A stretch of DNA of 64,000 nucleotides from a virus. The stretch spans positions 1-64,000 of IMG/VR virus record IMGVR_UViG_3300046786_000748; one strand, given 5' to 3'. The translations under genes and the position numbers were made by a program. Under the pieces are notes generated by a model. It saw only the letters and a list, made by a program, of their open reading frames with translations. It searched no databases and was not told the origin of the DNA. Shown piece by piece: positions 1,219 to 50,215 of the stretch. How positions within the stretch are numbered: position 1 is the stretch's first letter; each line of letters begins with the position of its first letter.

Positions 1219-4200
1219 TTATTGATAAATCTGAATGTAATACAGTCCAGTTGAACCAAATGTGGGCGAAGAGAAATAAATTCCCCACCACCCCATAAAA
1301 CTATAGTTATTAGACGAAAACGCATTGGTTATTCCTGATGCCAAACTTAAATGAGCTGTAGATGAATTGATGGAGTTAATATAAACTTGTCCAGTAGTAG
1401 ACGGAGATGCGTTTATTCCTACATAACCATCTCCTCTAATATTTAGATAAGTCGTTCCGGATTTGTTTATGTTAATAGCTGTCGTTCCTGACCCACCAGA
1501 AGATCCACAATCAAAGTAAGGACCGTTACCGTCCGGAGAAAGCGTGCTCAAAATTACAACCGGTCCAGTAGTTCCTATTCCAACATTTCCACCATAAGGG
1601 TTTAAAGCTAAATTATAATAGTTTAACGATGTTCTATTTCTTGATTGAATCCATGCGTGTAAATCACCTGCCGTTTCAATTCCCATATTCAAGGAAGCAC
1701 CAGTACCTAAACCACCAATCACAAATCCGCTTTGAACAACCGAAGCTGTAGGTGTAGAACCAACACCATTGTTAAACGGATCATAAACCGTCAAAACAGT
1801 ACCTGGATTTGTCGTTCCAATCCCAACGTAACCTCTATGATGAACAGTCATCACATGAAACGCGTTGTTTAAAGAACTTATTTCAGTGTTAACAGAACCA
1901 GTTATTCCTGCATAGAACCCTATTCCTCTTTGATAATTTATTTGAATATACGATCCACTCTCTACGCTAGATTGGTGTTTATAAACAGTACTTGCAACAG
2001 TTTTGTGAGGAACAACATTGTTGCCGAGTATAGTAGAAAACCCACTATAAGTTTCACCCCAAGAAGCATATATTCCGGAAATTAGATTTCCACCTTGAGC
2101 TGCATATGGACCATATAATTTAATACTTCCAGAAATAGTTACTCCATCAGTAGAAAGAGGATTAGTTCTAATACCAACGTTGCTGTTAGAACTCATAACA
2201 AATACATTGTTATAAGGAGAGGAACCGAGATAGTCGAAATGAAATCTATATTCTCCAACTGAGTTATTGACCATCATTCTCCACTCTCGGGTAGCAGTGC
2301 CCATGAACAGAGAAGCAGAAGTAGTTCCCGAATTACCAGCCGAAATTCTCACAGCTCTATCACCATTAAGTGTACCGCCAATATCTAATTCACAAATTGG
2401 AGCAGTCGTCCCAATGCCGATCTTGCCTCCATTGGTTATAACCATCCACGGATTGGTATAAACATTGGATCCAGAACCAAAAAATAGATAGTTAAATATT
2501 CCGGTAGATGCATTTCCATAACCACCTAACATCGCTTGAACATTCGACCCACTGACCCATCCGATGCCTCTTGACCAACCTCCACCGCTTTGAGGTTCCC
2601 AAGAACCAAATAATTCAGAGTGCGTAGTCAAGCCAGTGCTTCCGCTTGTAATACGCCACGGACCACGAATCGTTAATTCATTTGAAGCATCACTGATTAA
2701 ACTTGTTCCAGTTAATGTATTACTTGACCATTTTGGATAATAACCGTCTGTTTTTCCTGTAAAATATGGATTAGCCAAATCCGACCAACTTGAACTAACC
2801 GACCGAGACGAAAATGATGCAGATATAGCCCATACAGATTGCGAAGAAAAATATGTATTTTGTGATATATAAGTGTAACTTGAAGTCCAAGCCCAACTTG
2901 AAGTCCAAGCCAAACTTGCTGTTCTAGATATACTTGTAGTTACATTGTAAACTGAACCAGTTCCTTCTCTTAAGAACTTACCCCAACTTCCCCAAGAACC
3001 GCTATTAACTATTCCTCCGGTTCTCATCCACAAATTGCCGTTTTGAGTAAAACCAAGTTGATGTGGCGGACCACCGGTCATATCAACATTTGATCCATAT
3101 GGTCTGAACGTTATATTACCATGTAAAGTTCCACCGTCAGCCAATCCATCTGTGGCGTTTGATTTTAAATCAAAATAGATACCAGCAGAACGACTGAATG
3201 GAGAATAGTCATCTCCTCTTGTGTCTGCTGAATGAACTGCATTTCCAGATATTTGAGTATTGACAGGTCTTAATGTAAAATAACCTGAAGAAGATCCTTG
3301 TAAAGTATCAGACCAAAATGATCTAGAAGCATATGATGCAGATACAGCCCAAAAACTTTGAGAAGCAAAGATAGCAGACTGAGCTTTATGACTATAACTT
3401 GAAGTTATAGCCAAACTTGCTGTAGTGGAATATTTAGCAGTGCCATTCAAGTATCCAAGCGAGGCGGATATTCTATTTAACCTAATAATACCACCAGCAA
3501 AAACGTCAACATCACCAGCACCAGCGATACCAAGGTTACCTACTTGAGTTGTTATATCTACACTATTTTGTCCATTAATCAAAACAGTATCACTGCCGTC
3601 AACTACTACATTTGTATAATAAACAGAACTTGCGGTGTTAGACAAATTTGTACTAATACTCGATGAAGCCCAAGAAGATGAAACTGCCCAAAACGATTGA
3701 GATGCAAAGATAGCAGACTGAGCTTTATGACTATAACTTGAAGTTATACTTGATGAAGCAAACGATGCTGATGTAGTTTGTAATGAGTAAAATGATGACG
3801 AAGCATAACTTGAAGAAGTCGCCGAAAAAGATCGGATAGACCAACTTGATGTATCAGGAGTAACATTCTCACCCAATAAATACGACGAAGCCATTCCATA
3901 GTTAGATGCTGTTGTATTAAAGAAACTCCACCCTACCAATGGATTTACCGACAAAACTTGACCAAATGTGTTTTCATAATCTATAGAAATTCTTGTAAAA
4001 TAGTTAATACTAGCAGTGTTATCAATAGCAATAGCTACTGTACCGTTAATTCCGCTGGTTACACCAATTCTTTTTTGAACATTGTCACCACCATTATTAA
4101 CCATGTTCAAGTTTACAACATCGCCATACAAACCGTCTCCAGGAGCAACAGAGTTACTATAAGCATATCCAACAATCGTCGTATCAATGTTTTTCGAAAG

Positions 4201-7200
4201 TCCGTAGAAATAACCGTGGATACGAATACGAAACATATCACTCCAAGTTCTGGGAATTGGCGTGACAATTACAAGAGACCCCGAATACCGTCCGTTTCCA
4301 ACATACGAAGCAACATTTGGATAATATACGTATTTGGTGCTGCCCGACGAGTGTGCAGATCTAATGGTGATTCCAGCAGTTTCTACAGCAAATGTTCCAG
4401 ATACATAACTAGCAGATACAGTTCTCAACGATGTTGAAGCAAATGATGATGATGCAGCTTGTAATGAGTAAAATGATGACGAAGCATAACTTGAAGATAC
4501 AGCCCAAAAACTTTGAGAAGCATAGAAACTCGTTTGACTCACCGTTCCTCTATCAGAATAACTTGCTGTTCCACGTAATGATCCAGATCCAAATCCAGAT
4601 GCCGATATATGACCAAATACGTGTAATTTTGAATTAGGGTCTGTAATACCAATACCCACGCTTTCATTAAACCCTTTTAAAGTAAGAACGGTATTCCAAT
4701 CAGTTGTTGCTGCGTTAATAGATCTAAAATTAAGCAAATAGTTATGAGAAGCCGCACTTATTTGATTTGTTTCTATTAAAAATCTATTAACTTGACCTGA
4801 TCTAAAAGCTATTTGTGATGTGCTTCCATAATCAGATGCAGAATACTGAGACGCAATTATTAAAGAAGAACTTAAATATAAACTATTTCCTACATGTAAC
4901 AATCCTGCGGGTTGAGTGTTGGCTATACCAACATTAGTTCCATTGTCGTAAATACTACTTGTTGCTGTTAAAACATTACTTACCCATTTTGGCAAATAGT
5001 TATCAGTCTTTCCTATAAAAATCGGAGCAGCATTTTCAACATAAGAAGCAGTCGTTGCATAACTTGAAGATACGCTTCGTGACGCAAAACTTGCAGATAC
5101 AGCCCAAAAACTTTGAGAAGCAAAGATAGCAGACTGAGCTTTATGACTATAACTTGAAGTTATACTTGATGAAGCAAACGATGCTGAAACAGCCCATCTC
5201 GACTGTGAAGCAAATAGTGTATTCTCCGATATATTTGATTTATTAGCATAACTTGCAGTTCCATGAAAAGTTCCAGAACCAAATCCGGAAGCAGATATGT
5301 GACCGAATACATGAAGCAAGGATTGTGGAGAAGAGGTTCTAATACCAACACTTCCTGTAGTTGGTGCTAATATTGTATATCTTGATGATCCAACCGATCT
5401 TATGGCTTCATAATATTCATCATTACCAGCCCAAGTTCTAATTCTAAACAAAGACTCGGAATAACCAACAATCGTATCCGATAAACCAAATTGAAGTTCG
5501 CCAGTAGAAGAAGCTCCCTCTGTAATTCTTGAAGAACTTGCAACAGTTAGAATTGCTCTAGATGTCGGAAGTGTAGTTCCAATACCAACAATTCCGCCGT
5601 TAGGCATTAACTGTAAAACAGAAGAACCACTCGCTCTTATTGCTGTGTAAGTTGATTCTCCCGATCCAGCTTCAATTATTACGGAATGTGGTAAATCAGA
5701 CGATTGTTCCAACCTAAAAGTTCCTTCGACGTTTGTATTATTTATCAAGTAAACTCCAGGAATTCTAGCCGAAGCATCATCAACAACCAATCCCAAAATT
5801 GCAGAATTAGCTGTTTCTTTAACTGTTAACGAATACAGAGGAATGTCAGTTCCAATACCAACATTGGTTCCATCATCATAAAGATTGCTTGTTCCAGTTA
5901 ATGTATTACTTGACCATTTAGGCAAATAATTATCGGTTTTGCCTGTAAAAATTGGAATAGCACCTTCAACATAAGAAGCAGTCAATGAACTACTCGCAAA
6001 ACTAGCAGATATAGATCTTACAGATTGTGATGCAAATAACACTGAAATGTTATAAGCAGTTTTTGAAAGATTAAATGACGTTGACGCTAGACTTGCAGAA
6101 ACAGAACTTGAAGCCCAAGAAGCCGATGTAGCCCAACGAGACTGAGAAGCAAATAACACAGAAATGTCATAAGTGTTTCTAGTCAAATTACTTGAAGCAG
6201 ATGCATAAGACGCAGATGTAGCCCATCTTGATTGAGATGTAAAAAATGCGGATTGGGCTTTGTGAGTATAACTTGCGGTTATCGATGTCAAACTTGCTGA
6301 CGACAAACTGGCGGAAATAGCCCATCTGGATTGTGAAGCAAACACAGCATTCTCAGCTTTGTGAGTATAACTTGCGGTTACTGATGTTAAACTTGCTGAA
6401 GATAAACTTGATGAAACCGACCAGAAAGACTGAGACGAAAAAAATGAAATTTCTGATATATTAGATATATTGGCATAACTTGCAGTTCCATGAAAAGTTC
6501 CAGAACCAAATCCTGATGCCGAAATTTGTCCAAAAACATGAAGTTTACTTTGTGGTATAGTAGTATTTATACCTACATCACCATTATTAGTTATAACCAT
6601 CCAAGGATCACTATAGATATTTGAACCTGAACCAAAATATAAATAATTAAACACTCCTGTTGATGCGTCACCAAATCCACCTATCATTGCTTGAACATTC
6701 GACCCACTGACCCACCCGATGCCTCTTGCCCACCCTCCACCAGATTGAGGTTCCCAAGAACCAAATAATTCAGGATGAGTAGATAATCCGGTACTACCGC
6801 TGACAATTCTCCAAGGACCACGAAATGTTAAATCTAAATTTGTATCGTGGTTTATTAAACTTGTTCCTGTTAAAGTATTACCAATCCAATTTGGATAATA
6901 ATAATCTGTTTTTCCTGTAAAAACGGGAACAGCTCCCTCAACATAAGATGCTGTTAAACTAGATGAAGCCCATGAAGCAGATATAGCCCATCTTGATTGT
7001 GAGGCAAACACTGAGTTTTGAGCTATGTGAGAATAACTTGCAGTTACAGAAGTTAAACTTGATGAATTCCAACTTGATGAAACAGCCCATCTGGATTGTG
7101 AAGCAAACACAGCATTCTCAGCTTTGTGAGAATAACTTGCAGTTACAGTGGTTAAACTTGCAGATGTCCAAGAAGATGATATAGCCCACCTTGATTGTGA

Positions 7201-7434
7201 AGCAAATATAGAGTTTGTCGCAATAGATGAATAAGAAGATGAAAGTGATCTGGATGCCCACGAAGCTGAAATTGCTAAATAAGCAGTTCCGTCTAAATCG
7301 CCTTTAAACAGAGATGCAGATACTCTTGATGCCGTGATGGTGCCCGCAACGTGGAACAATTCCATTGGATTATCAGTACCGACACCGATATTTCCAACGT
7401 TATTGCTTATAAATGGAATATTTACATCTGCCAT
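1219..7434 (-). CDS. Large tail fibre / virion appendage protein (2071 aa) with GNVGIGT shaft motifs and Ser-rich SASWA/TASYA repeats
   Basis: Repeated NVGIGT..P...LHV.G motifs typical of trimeric phage fibres, interleaved with FASQSRWAVSASWASSS repeats and a duplicated globular module. Confidence 0.75.
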   Translation of the reverse strand: MADVNIPFISNNVGNIGVGTDNPMELFHVAGTITASRVSASLFKGDLDGTAYLAISASWASRSLSSSYSSIATNSIFASQSRWAISSSWTSASLTTVTASYSHKAENAVFASQSRWAVSSSWNSSSLTSVTASYSHIAQNSVFASQSRWAISASWASSSLTASYVEGAVPVFTGKTDYYYPNWIGNTLTGTSLINHDTNLDLTFRGPWRIVSGSTGLSTHPELFGSWEPQSGGGWARGIGWVSGSNVQAMIGGFGDASTGVFNYLYFGSGSNIYSDPWMVITNNGDVGINTTIPQSKLHVFGQISASGFGSGTFHGTASYANISNISEISFFSSQSFWSVSSSLSSASLTSVTASYTHKAENAVFASQSRWAISASLSSASLTSITASYTHKAQSAFFTSQSRWATSASYASASSNLTRNTYDISVLFASQSRWATSASWASSSVSASLASTSFNLSKTAYNISVLFASQSVRSISASFASSSLTASYVEGAIPIFTGKTDNYLPKWSSNTLTGTSNLYDDGTNVGIGTDIPLYSLTVKETANSAILGLVVDDASARIPGVYLINNTNVEGTFRLEQSSDLPHSVIIEAGSGESTYTAIRASGSSVLQLMPNGGIVGIGTTLPTSRAILTVASSSRITEGASSTGELQFGLSDTIVGYSESLFRIRTWAGNDEYYEAIRSVGSSRYTILAPTTGSVGIRTSSPQSLLHVFGHISASGFGSGTFHGTASYANKSNISENTLFASQSRWAVSASFASSSITSSYSHKAQSAIFASQSFWAVSASFASRSVSSSYATTASYVENAAPIFIGKTDNYLPKWVSNVLTATSSIYDNGTNVGIANTQPAGLLHVGNSLYLSSSLIIASQYSASDYGSTSQIAFRSGQVNRFLIETNQISAASHNYLLNFRSINAATTDWNTVLTLKGFNESVGIGITDPNSKLHVFGHISASGFGSGSLRGTASYSDRGTVSQTSFYASQSFWAVSSSYASSSFYSLQAASSSFASTSLRTVSASYVSGTFAVETAGITIRSAHSSGSTKYVYYPNVASYVGNGRYSGSLVIVTPIPRTWSDMFRIRIHGYFYGLSKNIDTTIVGYAYSNSVAPGDGLYGDVVNLNMVNNGGDNVQKRIGVTSGINGTVAIAIDNTASINYFTRISIDYENTFGQVLSVNPLVGWSFFNTTASNYGMASSYLLGENVTPDTSSWSIRSFSATSSSYASSSFYSLQTTSASFASSSITSSYSHKAQSAIFASQSFWAVSSSWASSSISTNLSNTASSVYYTNVVVDGSDTVLINGQNSVDITTQVGNLGIAGAGDVDVFAGGIIRLNRISASLGYLNGTAKYSTTASLAITSSYSHKAQSAIFASQSFWAVSASYASRSFWSDTLQGSSSGYFTLRPVNTQISGNAVHSADTRGDDYSPFSRSAGIYFDLKSNATDGLADGGTLHGNITFRPYGSNVDMTGGPPHQLGFTQNGNLWMRTGGIVNSGSWGSWGKFLREGTGSVYNVTTSISRTASLAWTSSWAWTSSYTYISQNTYFSSQSVWAISASFSSRSVSSSWSDLANPYFTGKTDGYYPKWSSNTLTGTSLISDASNELTIRGPWRITSGSTGLTTHSELFGSWEPQSGGGWSRGIGWVSGSNVQAMLGGYGNASTGIFNYLFFGSGSNVYTNPWMVITNGGKIGIGTTAPICELDIGGTLNGDRAVRISAGNSGTTSASLFMGTATREWRMMVNNSVGEYRFHFDYLGSSPYNNVFVMSSNSNVGIRTNPLSTDGVTISGSIKLYGPYAAQGGNLISGIYASWGETYSGFSTILGNNVVPHKTVASTVYKHQSSVESGSYIQINYQRGIGFYAGITGSVNTEISSLNNAFHVMTVHHRGYVGIGTTNPGTVLTVYDPFNNGVGSTPTASVVQSGFVIGGLGTGASLNMGIETAGDLHAWIQSRNRTSLNYYNLALNPYGGNVGIGTTGPVVILSTLSPDGNGPYFDCGSSGGSGTTAININKSGTTYLNIRGDGYVGINASPSTTGQVYINSINSSTAHLSLASGITNAFSSNNYSFMGWWGIYFSSPTFGSTGLYYIQIYQ
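2410..6925 (-). repeat. Internal duplication of a ~115-aa module in the 2071-aa fibre (approx. 2410-2765 and 6570-6925)
   Basis: RGPWRI.SGSTGL.TH.ELFGSWEPQSGGGW.RGIGWVSGSNVQAM occurs twice; DNA cattcgacccactgaccca at 2541 and 6696 (offset 4155, in frame). Confidence 0.85.
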
Positions 7435-7447
7435 AAAAACCTACGGA

Positions 7448-7455
7448 TATAAATA
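7448..7455 (-). promoter_or_regulatory. TATTTATA late-promoter-like motif
   Basis: Sense-strand TATTTATA ending 13 nt before the ATG at 7434. Confidence 0.6.
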
Positions 7456-7471
7456 TTGGAATATCTTGTAT

Positions 7472-10400
7472 TTACGTTATAGAATTAAACAAACCCCTAA
7501 CCTCGTAAATCATGTTGACAGAGGACATGTCATTATCACCTTCCAATATCATTTCTATATTTAAATTTCTAGGATGAACACCAGCAGGATCAGGTATTTT
7601 ACTTAAAATTTTATGTCCATTAAAGTTATTATTGTCTTGTCTTAAAATGGCACCAGGAGTTTTTGTTGGAGATGCCGAATCGGTTTGTAAGAAATATTCG
7701 CTGTTAAATCCAACCGATCCATGACCATCCCAATTTCCATGAAGAGTTATTTTAACCCACGCAGAATCGTGATCATCCATATTAACGGTTAATACGTTTG
7801 TATACGAAGCAGTAGTTAAAGATAAAGTTTTACTTCCAAACTTAATAAATCCACCAGCAATATCAACGTTTCTAGCATAACTTGCAGTTAATGCATAACT
7901 GGAAGATAAAGCGTAACTGGATGAAACTACATAACTCGATGTTCTAGCCAATTCAGCAAAGAAAGAATAACTTGATGTTACAGCATAAAATGCGGAAGAC
8001 GCATAACTTGCAGTTAATGCATAACTACTACTTAACGAATATGATGAGCTGGTTGAACCAGAAGCATATGAAGCAGTTAAAATATTAGTTAAAGATTGTG
8101 TTACATTATAATAAATGTAAGAAAAATAACTGCCAGAATCGGAATAAGATGCGGAAATCGAGTTTCTAGCAAACGATGCGGAAAAACTAGAAGAAGCCCA
8201 GCTGGCTGACACAGCCCAGAAACTCTGTGAAGCAAAGAATGAGTTTTGAGTTTTTGATGACCAAGAAGCAGTTCCGATTGTATTTCCTAGATGTGAACCG
8301 GTTAAACTTACAGCAGTAATTCTACCAAGTACAGGATTAACCGTCAATGAAGTGGTTGTGTAAGTATTTTGATAACTTCCAGTATTCAATACAAATGTCA
8401 AATAAGCTGTAGCATTTGAACCGGTAGATTGAATTAACCCTAAATCGGATGTTCTGGACGACGAAGCCCAACTTGCTGAAATTGCCCATAAACTCTGAGA
8501 AGAATAAAATGTGTTTTGTGATCTGTGTGTATAACTTGACGTTACAGAACCAGAAGCAAACGAAGCGGATACAGCCCAAAACGACTGTGAAGCAAATAAC
8601 ACAGAAATGTTATAAACAGTTAATCCTAGATTTGTTGCTGTTGTAGAACTTGAAGCATAACTGGATGAAACGGACCATTGTGATTGTGAAGCATATAACG
8701 ATGTATAACTTATAACACTTTCTTCAGCCCAACTAGCAGTTCCTTGCAAACTTCCAGTAAGTCTTCCAAGAATACTTCCCATGAATTGAGTATTTGTAAC
8801 TATTAATAATGGGTCTATCGTAATACTCTGTATTTGTTCGACATTTAAGAAATCTACAAAAACTTGACTAACTGGGTTTAGACCACTACCTAGTTGAGTG
8901 CCCATTAGGTTTCCTTCAAACCAAACATCGCCGCCCTCATTTTTAAGATGACTTGATGTTAAACTTGATGAAGCCCAACTTGCCGTACTTATAAATGTAA
9001 TAGATTCTGTTACATTATAATAAATGTAAGAAGAATAACTTGCGGATATACAAGTTGAAGCCCAACTTGCAGATGTTGAACTTGAAGCCCAACTTGCAGA
9101 TGTAGCCCATCTTGACTGCGAAGCAAAAAATGCGTTTTGAGCTCTGTGTGTATAACTTGAAGTAATTGACGTTAAACTAGATGAGGCCAATGAAGATGAA
9201 ATAGCCCAAAATGATTGTGAAGCAAATAATGCGTTCTGTGCTCTATGTGTATAGCTTGAAGTTACAGATATTAAACTTGCCGACGCCCAACTGGCTGACA
9301 CAGCCCAACGAGACTGCGAAGCAAAAACTGCATTCTCGGATTTATGAGTGTAACTTGAACTTAAACTAGAAGACGCCCAACTGGCTGATACAGCCCAGAA
9401 ACTTTGAGAAGCAAATAAAGATCCTACTGTTTTTTCAGACCAGGAAGAAGTACCAATAATATTGTTGATTATGACACCGCCGCTTACATAACTAGCAGTG
9501 ATTGAGTTTCTTGCCCAAGAAGATGTACCGATTAAATCAATTGGCCGTCCATCAACAGCAAAAATTGTTTTTGATCCAGTTGCAAATAATATATCGCCCG
9601 AACTAGAAATTCTATATACTTCTTTAACACCATCACTTCCAAATTCTCTGACAAAGAATAACAAAGATGTGTTTGACATCGACTCCGATATGTCGGAATC
9701 GGCGTAAGCTTTAAAGCCTGCTAATGGTTGATAAGTGTTACCATTATGACCCCAAAATCCAATTTGTCCAATATATGATCCAGACAAAAGTTGTGTAGGA
9801 TTTATTACGGTTCCACCACCAGCATAAAAATTAATAACAGGACCAGATGGATCGTTTGGCCCAAACAATCTAACTCTTAAGTTACCATCTTTTACGAAAT
9901 CTACCGATGATGAAATTACAGTATAGTAAGCATCCGTATAAATGTTGCTTATTGGAGCTAATGTATTATTCGTCCAATAAGGTACGAAATTGTTTACTCC
10001 TTCTCCAATATAAGATGCTGTAACTGAACTTGAAGCAAATGAAGATGATACAGACCACAAACTTTGAGAAGCATAAAATGTGTTTTGTGATCTGTGTGTA
10101 TAACTTGATGTTACAGAACTTGATGCCCAACTTGCTGATGTAGCCCATCTGGATTGTGAAGCAAAAAATGCGTTTTGAGCACTATGAATGTAACTTGCCG
10201 TTGCCGAACTTGAAGCAAAAACAGCATTTTCGGCTTTATGTGTATAACTTGATGTAACTGTGGTTAAACTTTGAGAAGCCCAACTTGCTGATACAGCCCA
10301 GAAACTCTGTGAAGCAAAAAATGAGTTTTGTGCTCGATGAGCGTAACTTGATGTTACAGAACTTGATGCCCAACTTGCTGACACAGACCAGAAACTCTGA

Positions 10401-13400
10401 GAAGCATAAAACGTTGATTGAGCTTTTGATGACCAAGAAGATGTTCCTTCAACATTGCCCTTCAAAGAGCCTGTGAAACTAACAGCGGTAATTCTACCAA
10501 CCGACGGGTTAATTGTCAGTGAAGTTGTTACAAATGAAGCTTGATAACTTGCGGTGTCAAAAACAAACTGTATGTAAGCTGTTTGATTTGATCCAGTAGT
10601 TTGTACTAAAATAGTATCCGAATGCGTAGAACTCGATGCGTAACTAGCAGATTCCGCAAACAGAGCATAACTTGCAGTTCTAGCTAATTCTGCAAAATAA
10701 GCGTAACTTGCGGTTTCAACCGAAGTATTAATTCCACCGGAAATATAACTTGCTGTCAGTGCATAACTGGCTGACAATGCGTAACTGGCTGACAATGCGT
10801 AACTTGAACTAAAACTTGCTGAACTCCAAGAAGCGGAAACGGCCCAGAATGATTGTGAAGCAAAAAATGAGTTTTGAGCTCTATGAGTGTAACTTGAAGT
10901 TACAGATGTTAAACTTGCTGAAGATAAACTTGCTGATACAGCCCAGAAACTCTGAGAAGCAAAAAATGAGTTTTGTGCTCGGTGAGTATAACTTGAAGTT
11001 ACAGAACTTGAAGCCCACGAAGCTGATACAGCCCAGAAACTCTGTGAAGCAAACAAAGATCCCACCGTTTTTTCGGACCAGGAAGAAGTACCAATTGTAT
11101 TGATTACAATAGTACCTGTCATATAACTAGAAGTTAAAGATATGATTGAATAAGAAGCGGTCTTATTTGTCTTAACAACCCCAAAGGAATCTATAACCAA
11201 AAGGTTATTATCAGTTGATGATTGTAATCCAGTAAATCTCACCGGATCTGACGAAGCAGAAACATGCAATAAATGTGATGGAGAAATGGTTCCAATGCCT
11301 ACATTGGATCTGAAATAAGAAGGACTTTCGTTAATTGAATAAAGAGCCCAGGATTGGCTAATTAAACCACTGCTTCCAGTTTGATCGGAATTAATGAAGA
11401 TACTATAAGCATTTTCAACCTCATTTGCGTTATTACAGAATGGAGTTACATGTAATCCATAAGCAGTACCAATTGTACCGCTGACATAAGACGTACTGGA
11501 ATTTAATCCAAACTGAGTCCTTATGCCGTAAATCTCGTTTAAATGACCTAAATGTTCAACGCCTAAAGTTGCGTTTAAATTCGCAACTATGAAGTGTCCG
11601 CTGTTGGTAATAGACATTGAAACCCAAGTTGTTCCTGGATCATTATTAAAAGCTTTCCAATAATAAGTTCCGTCACTATTTGCTATAAAAGCAGGGAATG
11701 TTTGAATAGCTACAGAATCTTGGTTGTATTCCAATCCTCTTACTTCAAACAACGAGTCAACATTAAATGCATTTATGCCAACGTTTTGACCGACGTTGCT
11801 TATAGAAGATGTTCTGGTGAGTCTATTTCCAACCCATTTTGGAATGAAATTATCAGCACCTTCACCAATATATTCAACTTCTCTTGCTAAACTTGCACTT
11901 ACAGAACTTGAAGCCCAACTTGCTGATGTAGCCCACCTTGATTGTGAAGCAAATATAGAGTTTTGAGCTCGATGTGTATAACTTGACGTTATAGAAGTTA
12001 AACTTGAAGATGCCCATGAAGCTGAAATAGCCCAACGAGATTGTGAAGCAAATAATGCGTTCTGAGCACCATGAACATAACTTGCTGTTAAACTTGCTGA
12101 AGCCCAACTTGCGGAAATAGCCCATCTTGATTGGGAAGCAAAGAATGAGTTTTGGGATCCGTGGATATAACTTGCTGTTATAGAATTAATGCTTGCTGAG
12201 GCCCAAGAGGATGATACAGCCCAACGTGACTGCGAAGCAAATATGCTATTTACAGAAGTTTCAGCATAACTTGCAGAAGTAGAGCCCGATGCGTAACTTG
12301 AAGAAATTGTATCGGTTTGATAAACTTGCGGAGGATAATACAACGTCATTTCAGCAACCGTAGCATAACTTGCTGTTTCAGAATTTAAACTTGAAGATGC
12401 CCACGAAGATGATACTGACCAGAAGCTCTGTGACGCAAACAGTGCATTTTGTGCTCCGTGAATATAACTGGATGTTACCGAGGTTAAACTTGATGAAGCC
12501 CAACTCGATGAAACGGACCATCGAGATTGTGAAACAAAAAATGCGTTTTGAGCTCTATGCGTATAACTTGATGTTATTGCTGTCAAACTTGAAGATGCCC
12601 AACTTGCTGATACAGCCCAGAAACTCTGTGAAGCAAAAAAAGCCGATTGAGCTTTTGATGCCCAAGAAGCGGTTCCAGTTGTATTTCCTAAATGAGAACC
12701 AGTAAGACTAACTGCCGTAATTCCGCCTACTGATGGATTAACAATCAAAGATGTAGTTACGTAAGTGTTTTGATAACTTCCGCTGTTTAACATAAACACA
12801 ATGTAAGATGTGTTGTTTGAAGCAGTTGTTTGAACCAAAATCGAATCGGACTTTGTTGACCCTGATGCGTAACTTGCAGATATTGCCCAATAAGATTGTG
12901 ACGCAAAGAACGTGTTTTGAGCTCTATGTGTATAGCTTGAAGTTTCAGATGTCAAACTTGCTGAAGCTAAACTTGCTGAAACTGCCCATAAACTCTGAGA
13001 AGCAAAAAATGAGTTTTGAGCTCTATGAGTGTAACTTGAAGTTACAGATGTTAAACTTGCTGAAGATAAACTTGCTGATACAGCCCAGAAACTCTGAGAA
13101 GCAAATAAAGCATTTTGTGCTCTGTGAGTATAGCTTGAAGTTATAGAAGTTAAACTCGATGAAGCCCAAGAAGCGGATGTTGCCCAACGAGATTGTGATG
13201 TAAACAATTGTTGAGTTAAACTTGGAGCCCAACTCGCTGATATAGCCCAAGACGATGTTCCAAACAAAGATCCTGTAGCAGTAATAACAGAACCGGTTTG
13301 TCTTACAAACGGTCCTGTTCCTGTTCCTATATATTCAGTTTCGGTTAAGTGATAATATTGACCGCTTTGACCGCCTTGAAGCCCTCTTAGATCGTTATGT

Positions 13401-33208: not shown

Positions 33209-33212
33209 TTTT

Positions 33213-37301: not shown

Positions 37302-37324
37302 TAAGATTGGTGATTTGGTAGGTA

Positions 37325-37332
37325 TATTTATA
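37325..37332 (+). promoter_or_regulatory. TATTTATA late-promoter-like motif
   Basis: 26 nt before ATG 37359. Confidence 0.6.
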
Positions 37333-37358
37333 TTTATTTACATTAACAGGAACATAAT

Positions 37359-38741: not shown

Positions 38742-38782
38742 GGTAATTGGTAAAATAGTTATAAACATAGGAAAAATAAATT

Positions 38783-40420
38783 ATGGCATTTAACGGATAT
38801 GTTCAAGTTCCACCGGATGGTACCGGAAAAAAAGTAGGCCATGTAATCTTAATAGAATTAGATTACACCGGAGGTACCTTAGATTTTGTATTGGGAGATA
38901 AAGTTGTAGGACAAACATCTGGTGCAGAAGGATATGTTGTTAAAATTGTTGGAACTACTGCTTCCGGAGAACTTTACCTTTCATTAGATTATGAATCTGT
39001 AATCGCATTTACTGTTGGAGAAAATCTTCAAGTAGATTCCGTAACATATGCTCAATCTGATTCAGTAGGTTCTACACTTTATACACCACAAGTGTCTATT
39101 GTTGACCACGAAAATCCGTTTAATGGTGTAAATGTAACAACCGATGGAGAACTTGTAGTTTCTACTGCTGAAGGTCCATTTGGGTTTGATTCTTTTGGAA
39201 ATCTTTCTGTATCACAAGAATCTTATCTAGGTTTGTATAACTATGAATATGGAATTAACATTTATGAACTAAACGCACAAACAAGTTCTCTTGGAATAGG
39301 TGAAACAATTCTCGCTCCTACTACTGTTAATAATCTTGCTTGGTCTGGAGTACAAATGACTAATCCAGCTACAAGCGGTTCTGTGACAAGACTGGAATCT
39401 AATTTATATCACCCGTACAATGCCGGAACAGGACAAAAATGGATAGGATCGATTAATTTTGGAGATACTGGAACAGCAGGAGTAGTAAGACGATGGGGAT
39501 ATTTTGATAACGAAGATGGTTTATTTTTTGAATTAAGTGGTTCAACAATATTGGCAGTAGTTCGTTCATCCGTTCCAAATGGCGTTGTCACCGAAACTAA
39601 AATTCCACAAACAGAATGGAATGTTGATAGATTAAATGGACAAGGTGGGGATAGAAACATAAGTAACATTGATTTAGATGTTTCTAAAGGAAGAGTATAT
39701 TTTATAGATTTTCAGTGGTTAGGCGTGGGCAGAACAAGATGGGGTATTATTGCAAATGGTAAACGAGTAGTTTGTCATCAAACCTATCATGGTGGGATGG
39801 TAGATTATCCATACATGAGATGTGGTACCCTTCCATCAAGAATTGAACAAATAAATTATCTCACCGCCGGCGGACCAACAGTCATGAGAAATTATTCTAT
39901 GGCTGTAATAGCTGCTTCTCGTTTTGATCCACATACATCTCAAGTTCAGGGTCAAACTACAGATTTAACTAAAGTAGTAGATTGGACTGGTTCGTTTAGA
40001 CCATTGATGTCGGTTAAATCAAAACCATTGTTTAATGGAAGAGAAAATAGATCAATCGCTGTTCCAACAAATCTAAACATTTATAGTTCTCATTGTCCAT
40101 TAGTAGTTCAAATTCACAAATGGCCACTTTTAACTGGAGATACTTGGAACGTACCAACATCATCTACTAGCACGTTAATGGGCGATTATACAGCAACAAC
40201 AGCAAGTCAGGGGTCGATTGAAGGAACATTTTTAGTTCCATCAAATGATGTTTGGGAACACGAATTTCCGGAAGAGTGGGATGAGGCTTGGAAAATCTAT
40301 AGAGCAGAAAGTATCGCAAATGAACGATGTGCGTTTACATTAATGGGTAAACTTTTAAATACGACAACCGCTCCATCTTCCAGTGTAACTGTAACGTTAA
40401 ATTGGAAAGAAATCTATTAA
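38783..40420 (+). CDS. Virion structural protein with lectin/ConA-like beta-sandwich (545 aa)
   Basis: RRWGYFDNEDGLFFEL...EWNVDRLNG...FIDFQWLGVGRTRWG segment; F..GD.V.G.TSGA motif shared with the 1362-aa protein. Confidence 0.6.
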   Translation: MAFNGYVQVPPDGTGKKVGHVILIELDYTGGTLDFVLGDKVVGQTSGAEGYVVKIVGTTASGELYLSLDYESVIAFTVGENLQVDSVTYAQSDSVGSTLYTPQVSIVDHENPFNGVNVTTDGELVVSTAEGPFGFDSFGNLSVSQESYLGLYNYEYGINIYELNAQTSSLGIGETILAPTTVNNLAWSGVQMTNPATSGSVTRLESNLYHPYNAGTGQKWIGSINFGDTGTAGVVRRWGYFDNEDGLFFELSGSTILAVVRSSVPNGVVTETKIPQTEWNVDRLNGQGGDRNISNIDLDVSKGRVYFIDFQWLGVGRTRWGIIANGKRVVCHQTYHGGMVDYPYMRCGTLPSRIEQINYLTAGGPTVMRNYSMAVIAASRFDPHTSQVQGQTTDLTKVVDWTGSFRPLMSVKSKPLFNGRENRSIAVPTNLNIYSSHCPLVVQIHKWPLLTGDTWNVPTSSTSTLMGDYTATTASQGSIEGTFLVPSNDVWEHEFPEEWDEAWKIYRAESIANERCAFTLMGKLLNTTTAPSSSVTVTLNWKEIY

Positions 40421-40426
40421 TGTTTC

Positions 40427-40993
40427 ATGTGGACTACATCTTTCTATAATTTTAGAGAATACTGGAATCTTCGTCACAAAGTAACATTTGATGGAGATAA
40501 CCGATTAATTATAATTAATTATGGAGAAACAGACGTTGATATAGGAATCGATGTTTATTCTGATTGGAAAGAATGGGCTTTAATCTATGATTATTCAAAG
40601 TATCCTGTAGCAATGTCAGCTATCGGTGGCGAACCTATTGGTGGAGGACAATACGTAGGTTCAACTTATTTCTTGGAAAATGGTTGGAGAATTAAACCGT
40701 GGGAAGGTAGTCACAACTTATCGGTTGTTGGTAATGTTTATACAAGAGAAGAAGGCGATTCGCCGTTTGTAAACACCGATGGGCTTTGGAAGATAAATAT
40801 CATTAATAAAGTATCTTCTATCGTAAGTACTGTTCAGGTATCTACAACAGATACAGGTTCAATCCCAACCGCTGAACAAATTGCAGCTGCTGTCTGGAAT
40901 AAGTTAATTCCAAACAATCCAGATACAGGATCTTATGGAGAACATGTTGCCGGAAGGTTACTAACTATTGCCCATTATTTAGGAATGAAATAA
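40427..40993 (+). CDS. Virion structural protein (188 aa)
   Basis: KVTFDGDNRLII...DVYSDWKEWA...YFLENGWRIKP; similar to the N-terminus of the 460-aa protein. Confidence 0.6.
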   Translation: MWTTSFYNFREYWNLRHKVTFDGDNRLIIINYGETDVDIGIDVYSDWKEWALIYDYSKYPVAMSAIGGEPIGGGQYVGSTYFLENGWRIKPWEGSHNLSVVGNVYTREEGDSPFVNTDGLWKINIINKVSSIVSTVQVSTTDTGSIPTAEQIAAAVWNKLIPNNPDTGSYGEHVAGRLLTIAHYLGMK

Positions 40994-41005
40994 GACAATT
41001 TTTCA

Positions 41006-41013
41006 TATTTATA
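41006..41013 (+). promoter_or_regulatory. TATTTATA late-promoter-like motif
   Basis: Ends 4 nt before ATG 41018. Confidence 0.6.
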
Positions 41014-41017
41014 TCAT

Positions 41018-43570
41018 ATGGCAGTCGTCTATTATCCAAAACAATCTATAGTTCTTAAAAGAGACACGGTTAGTGCATCTTTTGAACAAGTTGTTTTAAA
41101 TACCACACCAAATACAATTCTCTATTTTGGTTCCGGTTCTCTCTCTGAAATATCCGGCTCTACAATTTACATTACTTCTAGTCACGCCCTAACTGCATCT
41201 TATCTCATGGGGTTTATAGAATCCGCTTCATTTGCTTCATTCGCTTTAAGTGCCTCATGGGCTCCTTCAGTTCAAAGCGAAGGTTCTGTTTCGTCATCGT
41301 GGGCTAGTTCAAGTTTATCAGCAAGTTATGCTACACTTGCTTTGAACTCCATCAATGGAAGCGTATCCGCTTCTTATGCTTTAACTGCATCATACTCGTC
41401 GAATGCCTCTTCGGAATCTTCTAGTTACGCACTTACAGCAAGTTATGCTTTAAATGGCGGTTCTGGTGGAACAACACTAACAACGGGTTCTTTTTATCCA
41501 ATAACTTCAAGTTGGTCGGTTTCAGCAAGTTGGGCTCCTAGTTCTCAAACAGTTGCATCTGTATCATCATCTTGGGCTAGTAGTTCACTGAGTTCTAGCT
41601 ATGCTATTTTAGCTTTAAACGTAATTAATGGTAACGTTTCTGCATCTTATGCGTTATCAGCATCCTATGCACCAAGTTCTCCATCTGTTTCTGCTTCATA
41701 TGCTTTAAGTTCTTCATATGCACCATTCACACAAGTTTATCAATCCAACACAACATCGGCAAGTTGGGCTAGCAGTTCTTTAACAGCAAGTTATTTACCT
41801 CCTGGAAATTATGCAATAACTTCTTCATGGACGACAAATTTACCACCCCATACTGCTTCATGGGCAGGGAATGCAATAGTTTCAAATACAAGTTTATATG
41901 CTTCTCAATCTCAGTGGTCAATTTCTTCAAGCTATTCTTCTGGTTCTACTACAGCAGTAACAGCTACAAACCTCGGATTAACAGCTTATAATATTTCTGT
42001 AACCTTTGCTTCTCAAAGTCAATTAGCTATCACTTCATCGTGGGCAAGCAGTTCACTATCTTCATCATTTGCTATAAGTGCAAGTTATTCTGCATATCTC
42101 TATTACAATGTAACGCAATCTTTAACTCTTATAAGTTCAGCTTCGTGGGCTTCAGCAAGCTTAAGTTCAAGTTACTTAACTCCAGGAACATATCAAATAA
42201 CTTCGTCCTGGGTTACAAACCTTCCTGCTCATACAGCTTCTTGGGCTGGTAATGCGAACGTTGCTAATACAAGTTTATATGCTTCTCAATCCAACTGGGC
42301 TATATCTTCCAGTTATGCTTCAGGATCTACAACGTCAGTAACTGCAACTAATCTAGGGTTAACTGCTTATAACATAAGCGTAACTTATGCTTCGCAATCA
42401 AGATGGGCTATATCAGCAAGTTGGGCTTCAAGTTCACTTACATCAAGCCACTTGCCTCCTGGAACTTATCAAATAACTTCTTCTTGGGCTGGAAATTCAA
42501 TAGTATCAAATACTTCTTTGTTTGCTTCACAATCACAATGGTCAGTTTCATCTTCGTATGCTACGAGTTCAACCAGATCCGACGTAAGTTTAGTTCAAAA
42601 TACAGGATCTAATGATACGTCATATTTGACGTTTGTTTTAAATACAGGAAGTTATCAGAACAACTACGTCACAACATCAATAACTGTTAATGCTGGATTG
42701 GGCAGATTAACTGCCACAAGTTTTACAGGAAGTCATTTCGGAAATACAATAGGAACGTCAAGTTGGTCAGTTTCAGCTTCATGGGCTCCATCAAACGGTG
42801 TTGTAAGTTCAGCTTCGTGGTCTTCAGCAAGCTTAAGTTCAAGTTACTTAACTCCAGGAATTTATTCAATAACTTCATCGTGGGTAGTTAATTTGCCTGC
42901 TCATACAGCTTCATGGGCAGGAAACGCAATAGTTTCAAATACAAGTTTATACTCTTCACAATCTCAGTGGAGTATATCTGCTTCATATGCTTCAAGTTCA
43001 ACAATTGCTAATACAGCTACAACAGCTACTAATCTTGGATTAACATCTTATAATATTTCTGTCATTCACGCTTCGCAATCTCATTGGGCTACTTCAGCAA
43101 GTTATGCATCAAGTTCAACATCCGCTTCTTATGCTACACTTGCTCTCAATGTATTGAACGGAGGAGTTTCTTCATCATACGCATTATCTGCAAGTTATGC
43201 TCTTAATGGTGGTGGTGGACCAAGCATTTCTTCATCATACGCATCTACTTCTAGTTGGGCAAGTAATTTAGTAATAACATCTTCCGCACAAACTACCGGA
43301 AGTTACATCTTAGTTAGCGATGATAATGGTAAAGTAATTACATTCCAAAATGCTACAACTAATAGCATTGTTATTCCAGCTTCATTACCAACGAATTTTA
43401 ACTGTTTTTTGGTATCAGTATCTACCAGCAGTGTACAAGTTACTGGATCTGGTGGTATTCAACTTAATAATGCTAATAACTGTTTCAAGTTAAGTGGAAG
43501 ATATTCAGCCGCTTCCATTGTTGGATACTTGCCAGAAAAATACATTCTATTTGGTGATGTTTCTTTATGA
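41018..43570 (+). CDS. Ser-rich tail fibre shaft with C-terminal adaptor domain (850 aa)
   Basis: Same SASWA/TASYA and YASQSQW repeats as the giant proteins; C-terminal YILVSDDNGKVI...YILFGDV domain typical of fibre ends that bind a separate tip protein. Confidence 0.7.
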   Translation: MAVVYYPKQSIVLKRDTVSASFEQVVLNTTPNTILYFGSGSLSEISGSTIYITSSHALTASYLMGFIESASFASFALSASWAPSVQSEGSVSSSWASSSLSASYATLALNSINGSVSASYALTASYSSNASSESSSYALTASYALNGGSGGTTLTTGSFYPITSSWSVSASWAPSSQTVASVSSSWASSSLSSSYAILALNVINGNVSASYALSASYAPSSPSVSASYALSSSYAPFTQVYQSNTTSASWASSSLTASYLPPGNYAITSSWTTNLPPHTASWAGNAIVSNTSLYASQSQWSISSSYSSGSTTAVTATNLGLTAYNISVTFASQSQLAITSSWASSSLSSSFAISASYSAYLYYNVTQSLTLISSASWASASLSSSYLTPGTYQITSSWVTNLPAHTASWAGNANVANTSLYASQSNWAISSSYASGSTTSVTATNLGLTAYNISVTYASQSRWAISASWASSSLTSSHLPPGTYQITSSWAGNSIVSNTSLFASQSQWSVSSSYATSSTRSDVSLVQNTGSNDTSYLTFVLNTGSYQNNYVTTSITVNAGLGRLTATSFTGSHFGNTIGTSSWSVSASWAPSNGVVSSASWSSASLSSSYLTPGIYSITSSWVVNLPAHTASWAGNAIVSNTSLYSSQSQWSISASYASSSTIANTATTATNLGLTSYNISVIHASQSHWATSASYASSSTSASYATLALNVLNGGVSSSYALSASYALNGGGGPSISSSYASTSSWASNLVITSSAQTTGSYILVSDDNGKVITFQNATTNSIVIPASLPTNFNCFLVSVSTSSVQVTGSGGIQLNNANNCFKLSGRYSAASIVGYLPEKYILFGDVSL

Positions 43571-44796
43571 TCAACCACGGTTCAATTACTGCTTACTTAG
43601 ATCCAGATGCCGCTAAAATTAGAAATGATGTATTAGCGGCAAGTGGTTCTGTTTCTAATTTCGGTGAATTAAATACTGCTTGGAAAAATTTGAATAGATG
43701 TTTGAATTTGAGTTCGTCCGTTGAAAAATATGTAGCAACAACTACAAATGGATATGAATTTCTTGCCGCATTAAGCCAAAGTATATTAGCTATTACAACT
43801 TCTGATAGAATAGATACACAAATAACAAGCAGTGTTGGTAGTGGTGGTGGAAGTTCTACTTTACGTCCTATCTTGTGTCCAGATGGTACTATCTATTGTC
43901 CACCTTACGGTGCTACTAATGCTGGATATTATTATTTACCTGATACCAATCAATTCTTTACGGCTTCTGGTCAAGCAGCCGTAGCTGCTAATCAATATGT
44001 AAGTGCCGTGTTACAGCCAGATGGAAAAGTATTTTGTGTTCCTTATTCGATGACAGCAAGTCGTGTATTTGATCCAGCAACTAAATCGGTTGTGTTTAAA
44101 GGTAAGTTCGCTGGTGGTGGACAATTTGCTGGTGGTGTTCAACTACCAAACGGTAAAATATTTTGCAATCCGTATAATGGCACAAGAGCAATTATATGGG
44201 ACCCATTAACCGAAACTTCCAGTTCTTCCGATGGTTTAACTTATTCTGGCAGTGCTGCGTCACATGGTTGTGTATTGGCGGCAAATGGTAAAGTATATTC
44301 AATTCCATTTAACGCAACTAAAGTATATGTTTATGACTATAGAACAAATTTAACAACTACTGGAAGTGGAACATATGCTGGTAGTCAGGCATTTTTAAGC
44401 GGTGTATTATTACCTAATGGTAAAATATTTTTCCATCCTTGGCTTTCAACATCAGCAAGAATATATGATCCAGAAACGGATATAGTGACTACACCAGCAC
44501 CAACATTTCCGGGAACCAGCGGATATCTTGGCAGTGTGTTAATGCTTGATGGAAGAGTTATATTAATTCCATCTAATCAATTAAGGCCCGGTTTTTATAA
44601 TTACACAACAGATACTTATTCAACTGGTTCGGTAGCTTGGCACGCTGGGACATTTGGTTTTTATAGTGGTGCGTTAATGAAGAATGGAAAAATATTTGCT
44701 TGTGGTTATAATCATGTACGAAACGAAATTTTTACACCAAATTATGTTAGTGCATCAAGCACACTAGCATTATCAACATTTTTAAACAAAGCCTAA
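43567..44796 (+). CDS. Seven-bladed beta-propeller protein, candidate receptor-binding tip
   Basis: Seven ~42-aa repeats of L.P(D/N)GK(I/V)(F/Y)..P(Y/F)......(Y/F)DP.T; ATGA-coupled to the 850-aa fibre. Confidence 0.7.
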   Translation: MINHGSITAYLDPDAAKIRNDVLAASGSVSNFGELNTAWKNLNRCLNLSSSVEKYVATTTNGYEFLAALSQSILAITTSDRIDTQITSSVGSGGGSSTLRPILCPDGTIYCPPYGATNAGYYYLPDTNQFFTASGQAAVAANQYVSAVLQPDGKVFCVPYSMTASRVFDPATKSVVFKGKFAGGGQFAGGVQLPNGKIFCNPYNGTRAIIWDPLTETSSSSDGLTYSGSAASHGCVLAANGKVYSIPFNATKVYVYDYRTNLTTTGSGTYAGSQAFLSGVLLPNGKIFFHPWLSTSARIYDPETDIVTTPAPTFPGTSGYLGSVLMLDGRVILIPSNQLRPGFYNYTTDTYSTGSVAWHAGTFGFYSGALMKNGKIFACGYNHVRNEIFTPNYVSASSTLALSTFLNKA

Positions 44797-48460: not shown

Positions 48461-48487
48461 GCGTTTATAAGTTATTGGTTACCAAGA

Positions 48488-50215
48488 TTATACTTGATTT
48501 AAATCGCCTACCAAAATGCGCCCGTAAAATTCTGGGCGGACTATCTTCTTCGCATATCTTGTCATTACACCACGTCTTGGCGTGAAGTTCACTGGATCGT
48601 AGACTAGAGGAGTCTGAACGAGTGGGATATATGGAGCATAGACAGCACCAGTTTCGAGGAAGTTATTTCCACGGAAACCAACAAGAATTACGTTGTCGGT
48701 CATATATGGGTTCTTGTAAACCTGGAATCTTGAAGCAAAGCTTCCGACTCTGGTTACGCCCATTGCGAACTTGGCTTGGTCACCATCGGTATTTACTGCC
48801 CATCCTGGGATGGATTCAAGGATGGTTGCGACATCTGGCGAGCAAACGAGGAAGTTAGCACCACCACGGAGGGTCAACTGGTGAATCTTGTTACTAACCT
48901 TCTGAATCTTGATACCCAACGTGCGGTACCATGTATCCTTGGTGTAATATCCACCTGTTCCTGCAACGGATTGATCAACGACTGCGTATGTTCCATCACC
49001 GTTGGAGAGGATTTCACGATTGAGCTTAGCAGACCATCTTTCGGTGGTGATTGCTGGAGCATTCGTGATTAACATGTCGAGGATTTCAAGGTCGATTTCC
49101 ATTGAAACGTACTCAGACAACAGAGCAGTAAGTTCTGCTTCTGCGTCAATGCTGTGATAAGCATTCAAGTCTTGAGCAAGTTCTGGAGTCCAGACTGCTT
49201 TCAACTTACGAGTCTTGGCGACGATAGGTTCGCTCTTAAGTTCCAAATTAACTTCTGGGATACCGATATCGTTATTTAATCCAAATGTAGCATCTGGAGA
49301 ACCACGATCTTCGAAGTCACCACGGTTGGCATCTTTAGGCTGTACTGAGTAAATAACAGTCCAAGTTCCACCAGCGGCATTTGCACCACCACCACCCATA
49401 CCTGGAGCACCACCCAATGTTGCGGAAGCAGTTACGAGGAAGACAACTTCGGTTCCGAATTGTTTGGTTAATGCTGGGTAATACGATGCGGATGTATTAG
49501 TTGGAGTAAACAACGATGCGGATTGTGCTGGTCCATAAAGAACAAAGCTACGAACTCCATTTGCGTCGAATACGTTACCAGCTGCTGTGGTCTGTGAATA
49601 GAGGTTAGTTGTAGCAACCTTCCAAATCTTACCAGCGGCCAGTGAAGATGACAAACTTACATCCCAGTTGATATCTTCCATCGAAGCAGAAGAAACTAAG
49701 ACTGTAGCGGTTGTGTTTTTATCATTTACAGTATATCCGAAACGGCCGGAACCATAAAGACCACCGGTTGCTGAATCAGTCGAACCGAGTTTCGTACCCG
49801 TTCCACCGTAAAGAGATTGCGAGGTTGTTCCACCACCCTGACCGTCCTTGTAGAACTGACCTTGGTTTGTTCCATACTTGAAATCAAGATAGAATACGAG
49901 ACCAGAAGGAAGATTCATTGGCTGAACCGAGACGAATTCCTTAGCAGCGATTTCTGCGAATACACGACGAACGAGTGGAAGAGCGACGCCTGCCCATTGT
50001 TCGGAGTTTGAAGATACACCAGTCTGACTGGCTTCTTCGATAAGCTGCTTGGCTTGGTTTTCAAGCAATACAGCCATGTTGGATTTTTCCATGTCATTCT
50101 TCAAACCTTCAAGCAAGCCTGTCTTATCCCACTTGGAGACGAGACCACGGGTTTCTTGCATCAAACGAGCCTGAGGATTCATGGTGTTTGTCAATAGTGA
50201 CTTTACATCATTCAT
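48488..50215 (-). CDS. gp23: Major capsid protein (T4 gp23-like)
   Basis: LPLVRRVF, VSVQPMNLPSGLVFYLDF, AKTRKLKAVWTPELAQDLNAYHSIDAEAELT, YAPYIPL, DPVNFTPRRGVMTRY. Confidence 0.95.
   Translation of the reverse strand: MNDVKSLLTNTMNPQARLMQETRGLVSKWDKTGLLEGLKNDMEKSNMAVLLENQAKQLIEEASQTGVSSNSEQWAGVALPLVRRVFAEIAAKEFVSVQPMNLPSGLVFYLDFKYGTNQGQFYKDGQGGGTTSQSLYGGTGTKLGSTDSATGGLYGSGRFGYTVNDKNTTATVLVSSASMEDINWDVSLSSSLAAGKIWKVATTNLYSQTTAAGNVFDANGVRSFVLYGPAQSASLFTPTNTSASYYPALTKQFGTEVVFLVTASATLGGAPGMGGGGANAAGGTWTVIYSVQPKDANRGDFEDRGSPDATFGLNNDIGIPEVNLELKSEPIVAKTRKLKAVWTPELAQDLNAYHSIDAEAELTALLSEYVSMEIDLEILDMLITNAPAITTERWSAKLNREILSNGDGTYAVVDQSVAGTGGYYTKDTWYRTLGIKIQKVSNKIHQLTLRGGANFLVCSPDVATILESIPGWAVNTDGDQAKFAMGVTRVGSFASRFQVYKNPYMTDNVILVGFRGNNFLETGAVYAPYIPLVQTPLVYDPVNFTPRRGVMTRYAKKIVRPEFYGRILVGDLNQV

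Follow-up and report, generated by a model that had tools for sequence, protein, structure and literature searches.

The stretch of DNA analysed here (the window) comprises positions 1 to 64,000 of the IMG/VR virus record IMGVR_UViG_3300046786_000748, and is the first part of a virus contig of 104,993 bp (G000) with approximately 35% G+C. It encodes a T4 gp23-type major capsid protein (MCP), a portal (60679-63741), a prohead protease and a terminase, and the source phage is an uncultured T4-like aquatic phage. Our subject is a tripeptide, [ST][GAS]S, that recurs in the outer virion proteins of this phage, together with the glycosyltransferase (GT) genes that may be connected with it. The MCP shares 54% identity with the MCP of Flavobacterium phage immuto, 52% with that of Microcystis phage Mel-JY01, 53% with that of LR756508, an uncultured phage of 484 kb, and 39% with that of Rhodothermus phage RM378. 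Three of the relatives are cultured (immuto, Mel-JY01 and RM378), and more than 590 IMG/VR contigs carry an MCP of the window's type. A first scan of metagenomes gave no match, and all that a second one recovered were short contigs from the same clade as the window. The contig holds 8 of the 23 genes common to immuto, Mel-JY01 and two IMG/VR relatives, and we did not find sheath, tube or replication genes on it. It is thus a genome fragment.

The tripeptide was scored in each protein as [ST][GAS]S, and counts are given below as observed against expected, the expectation being taken from composition shuffles. Two repeat fibres encoded on the negative strand are saturated with the motif, one of 2071 aa (1219..7434; 88 against 39) and one of 3888 aa (7472..19138; 274 against 133). 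The former is built from a 33-aa (99-nt) unit with approximately three motifs each, and the latter from 99-nt tandem units that are 72-88% identical. On the same strand are a motif-rich fibre-associated protein of 554 aa (19142..20806; 25 against 6.2) and a mildly motif-rich, head-completion or adaptor-like protein of 408 aa (25522..26748; 3 against 0.8), which matches the adaptor family phrog_211 with E=8.5e-10.

A block of unnamed outer proteins is located at 32162-44796 on the positive strand. In order, it encodes a Ser-rich fibre-like protein of 348 aa (32162..33208; 28 against 12.5), a non-repetitive outer virion protein of 1362 aa (33213..37301; 38 against 9.2, z=10), a structural protein of 460 aa with 40% identity to gp53 of phage Syn5 (37359..38741; 14 against 3.0), a virion structural protein of 545 aa (38783..40420; 8 against 2.0) that matches phrog_1645 with E=9e-49, a structural protein of 188 aa (40427..40993; 2 against 0.4), a repeat fibre of 850 aa (41018..43570; 71 against 37) and a motif-rich outer protein of 409 aa (43567..44796; 12 against 2.7). 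The 1362-aa protein is the richest of the globular carriers, and searches of a phage collection and of IMG/VR gave no close relative of it. PHROGs provides no name for most of the motif-rich proteins. The first-pass annotation, made by eye, had put about 30 motifs in the 1362-aa protein, about a dozen each in the 460-, 409- and 554-aa proteins (14, 12 and 25 by our count) and DTGS twice in the 188-aa protein, and both motifs of the latter are indeed DTGS.

The MCP (48488..50215, negative strand) holds five motifs against 1.7 expected, and all five (VSSAS, LSSSL, QSASL, TSASY and VTASA) fall within residues 176-264, in agreement with the clustering in a central variable segment that had been proposed for it. 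In the lineage alignment this segment is the variable block, and it lies between two segments that can be aligned with T4 gp23. By its position we take it to correspond to the T4 insertion domain, on the capsid exterior, and the motif-bearing segment of the window's MCP would then also face outwards.

Together, the 14 outer proteins without repeats (9,338 aa) hold 210 copies of [ST][GAS]S, where 52.7 would be expected. A position-by-position scan of this set recovered exactly the motif definition that had been read by eye. Only S (3.4x) or T (4.8x) is accepted at position 1; position 2 takes G (5.5x), A (4.5x) or S (2.75x), with Q weak; position 3 takes S only (4.0x, T being at 1.03x). No tripeptide in the non-repeat set is more enriched than TGS (26 against 3.7), and the permuted orders GTS, STG, TSG, SGT, GST and TGT are about as frequent as expected. 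T[GAS]S is found 52 times and S[GAS]T 17 times. The flanks are mildly hydrophobic or contain Pro, and the residues enriched upstream are L, I and P, not D. Both TCN and AGY serine codons are used at the motif, so that the signal lies at the protein level, and a DNA-level motif is ruled out.

The excess could in principle reflect Ser/Thr-rich composition, low-complexity patches or repeat duplication, since the fibres are 25% Ser and the 33-aa repeats, with approximately three motif copies per unit, inflate their raw counts, which are therefore not independent. In the Ser-rich fibres the motif is only approximately 2x over expectation. The non-repeat proteins of 1362, 460, 409, 554 and 545 aa have it at 3-5x over expectation, the permuted orders show no excess, and block shuffles of 8-20 aa gave 31-37 motifs and never more than 55 in 1000 trials, the observed number being 104. 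We regard the artefact as refuted.

The motif is confined to outer, exposed virion proteins. As had been claimed, it is nearly absent from the window's enzymes, none of which has more than one copy: the CCA-adding enzyme has one, and the Nudix, NADAR and protease proteins, the GT4 glycosyltransferase and the FkbM methyltransferases have none. Beyond the window, seven more proteins on the contig are enriched, and a gp6-like baseplate wedge protein has no motif. The same pattern is seen in sums over orthologues from pair-bearing genomes, that is, genomes with the GT pair described below: 23 against 10.1 (2.3x) for the MCP, 2.6x for the sheath and 4.1x for the head-completion-like protein (21 against 5.1 for the 408-aa orthologues of six genomes). 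There is no enrichment in the portal (0 against 4.6), protease (1 against 2.3), tube (0 against 0.8) or terminase (5 against 4.3). Restriction to exposed proteins might also be expected of a non-covalent docking site for a decoration protein, a chaperone or a host surface component. Three residues would be very short for protein docking, the motif is found in dozens of copies per protein and on unrelated folds, and no candidate binder was identified, and we consider a docking role very unlikely.

Whole genomes differ sharply in the trait. The ratios of observed to expected motifs over proteins of at least 300 aa are, for [ST][GAS]S and [ST]GS respectively, 2.34 and 2.85 in the present contig (14 proteins individually significant), 2.03 and 2.35 in G001, a record of 210 kb (5 proteins), 2.15 and 3.06 in G002 (4 proteins), 1.86 and 2.70 in immuto (3 proteins), 1.77 and 2.84 in Mel-JY01 (7 proteins) and 1.61 and 2.87 in RM378 (1 protein). 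Lower values are found in LR756508 (1.25 and 1.49; 3 proteins), LR756511 (1.27 and 1.72; none), G009 (1.12 and 1.23; none) and G007 (1.09 and 1.04; none). The sharpness of the motif at three positions, the restriction of the third to Ser and this genome-wide on/off distribution together fit a sequon read by an enzyme.

The motif-rich relatives share a tandem pair of GT4-like genes, which we here name GT-A' (approximately 480 aa) and GT-B' (approximately 440 aa). The two proteins are 40-50% identical among immuto, Mel-JY01, G001 and G002. The pair is present in each of the nine motif-rich genomes that are sufficiently complete (immuto, Mel-JY01, RM378, G001, G002, G004 and G035-G037). These nine include each of the three IMG/VR genomes of this MCP lineage that are complete. 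In RM378 the two genes are adjacent and diverged, with hidden Markov model (HMM) matches of E=3e-50 and 8e-8. The pair was not found in G007, G009, Syn5, LR756511 or approximately a dozen other motif-poor records. From immuto to RM378, the genomes have only seven proteins in common, and GT-A' is among them, along with capsid, terminase and protease. In cultured phages, GT-A' was found solely within this MCP lineage. Most members of both families keep an EX7E-type motif. In the relatives, the pair adjoins a changeable sugar-synthesis cassette; in immuto it heads approximately ten sugar genes, including aminotransferases, an epimerase, GT2 enzymes and a methyltransferase.

Several of these genes are interrupted. 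GT-A' is split into two open reading frames (ORFs) in three relatives, and in a fourth it is an 880-aa frame with an internal insertion (the split or interrupted loci are G001 64785-66339, Mel-JY01 83441-84932, G036 165459-167933 and G035 216010-218475). GT-B' of G035 also has an insertion, in a frame of 886 aa. Mobile elements or inteins may have invaded the GT-A' and GT-B' genes.

LR756508 belongs to the same MCP lineage and has GT-A' only. In an unbiased profile of the 23 lineage-core genes, five are missing from it, namely GT-B', a GT2, a WcaA-like GT, PhoH and a recognisable sheath, so that three of the five lost genes are glycosyltransferases. Its MCP, sheath and head-completion orthologues have 3 motifs against 3.0 expected, compared with 80 against 29.2 in the six pair-bearing genomes.

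The 460-aa protein allows individual sites to be followed, as it has approximately 1,900 relatives. Among 193 gp53-like homologues the motif counts are bimodal, being either 0-5 or 8-17, and no homologue has an intermediate number. In the rich homologues, the 14 sites of the query hold SGS, TGS, SAS, SSS, TAS and TSS interchangeably, in 33-98% of sequences. In the poor homologues, the motif is present at no more than 13% for 13 of the 14 sites and at 34% for the fourteenth, and the columns hold TGA, TGP, DAT, AGA, KDA or gaps. Syn5 shows no motif excess in any virion protein. As motif-poor homologues with the same fold exist, the motif is not needed for the fold, and its sites are kept only in rich clades, which bears out the earlier proposal of a recognition motif selected on exposed proteins. 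In a FastTree tree of the family there are at least six changes of the rich state, which forms two well-supported clades (support 100 and 99).

The kin of the 460-aa protein at approximately 40% identity are diverse, including gp53 of the T7-like cyanopodovirus Syn5, Maribacter phage Panino and T4-type myoviruses. On the tree, sequences of the T4-type capsid lineage form two clades with sequences of other phages between them, which points to exchange of this module between phage types.

An AlphaFold (AF2) model of the 460-aa protein has a confidence score (pLDDT) of 89.8, and a Foldseek search with it gave no convincing fold match (TM score at most 0.17). Most motif sites in the model lie immediately before or after a beta-strand. 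This position, the mildly hydrophobic flanks and the use of S-A-S-aromatic-A as a building block in the fibre repeats are what might be expected if the motif were an unmodified structural or physicochemical preference, such as a hydroxyl-rich turn at strand exits that aids solubility, hydration or fibre packing. Against this stand the homologues of the same fold that lack the motif. Furthermore, a simple turn would not predict that T is excluded at position 3 and favoured at position 1, and the trait switches between genomes along with GT content. We consider such a preference unlikely. From the sequence comparisons, we conclude that the motif is a real feature of exposed virion proteins, under selection and specific to the lineage.

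The window has sugar-related genes of its own, which the first-pass annotation had named as the writers of the motif. A gene for an FkbM-family methyltransferase, cut by the window edge, is located at 3..536 on the negative strand (TIGR01444, 42.2 bits, cut-off 37.7; PF05050, 23.6 bits, cut-off 22.7). It has no motifs and no orthologue in the relatives, and is a candidate accessory glycan-modifying enzyme. Next to it, a gene on the positive strand (503..1216; 237 aa) encodes a candidate glycosyltransferase of the GT-A fold. This weak call, which had been made in the first-pass annotation, has no match in Pfam or NCBIfam. Its basis is a DxD-like motif, WIDSDI, together with look-alike viral clusters from a protein language model, some of whose members carry GT2 (14%) or Anp1 (32-40%) domains, with scores of 0.97-0.98. 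This protein, too, has no motifs.

A GT4 glycosyltransferase of the GT-B fold (346 aa) is encoded at 21153..22193 on the negative strand (PF13692, 42.7 bits, cut-off 27; PF00534, 40.0 bits, cut-off 26.4). Its best match among the relatives is the GT domain of an FkbM-GT fusion in Mel-JY01 (E=2e-15), and it is probably an accessory enzyme outside the conserved pair. The fusion (Mel-JY01 4747-8430, locus L141) is a 1227-aa protein annotated as an FkbM methyltransferase that also has a GT4 domain, and the gene just upstream of it (3065-4591) encodes a strongly motif-rich protein (24 against 7.5).

A second FkbM methyltransferase gene is located at 54986..55723 on the negative strand (PF05050, 40.8 bits, cut-off 22.7), again with no orthologue in the relatives. 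Since it is flanked by genes for a dCMP deaminase and a NADAR protein, it may serve another pathway, and its link to the motif is doubtful. The FkbM and GT4 assignments thus all stand above their profile cut-offs. None of the four genes has an orthologue in the motif-rich relatives, which rules them out as conserved writers. The earlier proposal that the motif tracks GT content across relatives nevertheless holds in part, as it does so through the different, tandem pair and not through the window's own genes.

O-glycosylation is the best candidate for the modification, because the motif associates with glycosyltransferases, and we lean slightly towards reading the motif as a glycosylation sequon on these sequence grounds. 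In brief, selection would maintain [ST][GAS]S on those parts of the virion that face the solvent, namely the capsid insertion domain, the sheath, the neck, the outer baseplate and the fibres. The motif would act as the acceptor for cytoplasmic O-glycosylation of Ser/Thr by soluble, phage-encoded glycosyltransferases of the GT-B fold, and the conserved candidate writers would be the tandem pair GT-A' and GT-B'. The window's GT4, GT-A-like and FkbM enzymes may be lineage-specific accessories that extend or methylate the glycan on neighbouring fibres. We infer the attachment of a sugar, the residue that would bear it, the priming enzyme and the purpose that a coat would have, for which the first-pass annotation had put forward shielding or adhesion by a possibly methylated glycan.

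The sharp three-position definition and the on/off distribution would fit any enzyme-read motif, and it could instead be a sequon for another Ser/Thr modification, such as phosphorylation, O-acylation or ADP-ribosylation, by a different lineage-specific enzyme. The GTs would then serve modification of DNA or of the host surface; phage GTs are known to glycosylate DNA (PMC12619734), and genes for NADAR and Nudix proteins and for nucleotide modification are present in the window as well. Among the genes common to the motif-rich genomes we saw no kinase or acyltransferase, and glycosyltransferases make up the majority of the genes lost in the weak-motif relative LR756508. Another modification is therefore, in our view, improbable.

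It should be noted that several observations weigh against a glycosylation sequon written by the conserved pair. The pair was not found on the window's contig, a partial genome with 8 of the 23 core genes; the HMMs of the pair match only the 346-aa GT4 protein there, with E of approximately 1e-8, and tblastn gave nothing else. LR756511 lacks both GTs yet has a mild [ST]GS excess (1.72x), and G009 carries a GT4 gene yet has no motif excess. Because the motif and the pair are both lineage-wide, their co-occurrence is largely a single phylogenetic event, and the independent evidence consists of two contrasts on the gp53 tree and the case of LR756508. Both contrasts are concordant with the pair, and with only two the sign test gives p=0.5. 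In the model of the 460-aa protein, 10 of the 14 sites are in coil (p=0.09, not significant), so that the outward-facing position that had been expected of the sites is suggested at the level of secondary structure. The GTs could also act on DNA or on host surface glycans instead.

Glycosylated virions are known from a few systems. According to papers that cite it, among them PMC12619734, Freeman et al. 2023 showed by mass spectrometry that mycobacteriophage GTs glycosylate virion subunits. The likeness is that of a tailed phage with its own soluble GTs and with exposed capsid or tail subunits as the targets proposed. The mycobacteriophage glycans are described there at the C-termini of capsid and tail-tube proteins, whereas here the tripeptide is in loops of at least 12 outer proteins. 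No such C-terminal placement was found here: the candidate sites occupy loops and the central insertion of the MCP, and the tube orthologues have none. Further differences are that the tube is motif-free here, that the GTs are unrelated, lineage-specific GT4-like proteins, and that the present system is known from sequence alone.

Chloroviruses glycosylate their own capsid (PMC4691112). Among proteins of solved structure, the chlorovirus protein B736L of PBCV NY-2A (PDB 3oy2) is the closest to both GT-A' and GT-B' (E=2e-15 and 1e-6). The system proposed here would resemble that of the chloroviruses in being virus-encoded, in taking place in the cytoplasm and in using non-canonical sites, and it differs in that chloroviruses infect eukaryotic algae and carry N-linked glycans on Asn. 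The likeness of the pair to B736L is limited to the C-terminal GT-B half, and B736L has no known acceptor.

GtfA and GtfB, which glycosylate the serine-rich-repeat adhesins of Gram-positive bacteria, are two adjacent GT-B-fold proteins that O-glycosylate Ser in S-[A/V/T]-S-type repeats in the cytoplasm, and the fibres described here have SAS, SSS and TAS units. The pair gave no match to GtfA or GtfB, and the window's GT4 reaches 19.9 bits against the GtfA equivalog TIGR02918, the cut-off of which is 574.6. Unlike that system, the one proposed here is in a phage without an accessory Sec system, and the phage motif also occurs singly in globular proteins.

Bacteroidota O-glycosylation uses a three-residue sequon as well, D-[ST]-[AILVMT], and some of the relatives infect Bacteroidota (Flavobacterium and Rhodothermus). 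That system is periplasmic, host-encoded and based on a different motif, D is not favoured upstream of the phage tripeptide, and its position 3 is strictly S. In contrast to a Bacteroidota-bound system, the same [ST][GAS]S motif is also found in the cyanobacterial phage Mel-JY01. The literature searched does not describe a virion motif of this kind, and reports phage virion glycosylation only for mycobacteriophages. The other papers found, including PMC12619734, read phage GTs as modifiers of DNA or of the host surface.

The remaining gene content of the window includes a CCA-adding enzyme, Nudix, NADAR, dCMP deaminase and RNA-repair genes. The RNA-repair-like set (28401-30331, positive strand, and 56716-57870, negative strand) comprises a 2',5' RNA ligase or LigT-like protein with a weak match to Acb1, the CCA-adding enzyme, which has an HD domain, and the nucleotidyltransferase RlaP. 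The portal gene, on the negative strand, encodes 1020 aa with an HNH-endonuclease-like segment at approximately residues 159-441, ahead of the portal domain (443-839); the segment may be an intein, or else a homing endonuclease fused to the portal protein. Two GIY-YIG homing-endonuclease-like genes lie amid the structural genes (31302-32177, positive strand, and 47566-48333, negative strand), one of them also with a NUMOD3 motif. Further along the contig, at 68358-71570 (L001:5358-8570, negative strand), a single ORF of 1070 aa has an SbcD-like N-terminal and an SbcC-like C-terminal match, and looks like a fusion of nuclease subunits.

Taken at its widest, the sequon reading would mean that a large, global, aquatic T4-type lineage glycan-coats its whole outer surface at [ST]-[GAS]-S by means of a conserved phage GT pair, for which we see somewhat less than an even chance. 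Such a coat would span the capsid insertion domain, the sheath, the neck, the baseplate periphery and the giant fibres. The pair would be as conserved as the terminase and capsid genes, and the variable GT and methyltransferase genes would diversify the glycan. As three relatives are in culture, the hypothesis is directly testable. Even without a sugar, a sharp motif that is switched on or off genome-wide calls for an explanation. Should it prove to be a sequon, phage-encoded virion glycosylation would have its first defined acceptor motif, and glycosylation sites would become predictable from sequence alone. Sugar-coated virions would then be common among aquatic phages and not a peculiarity of mycobacteriophages, which would bear on how phages recognise their hosts and are themselves recognised by immune systems, on the stability of virions and on how readily they stick to organic matter.

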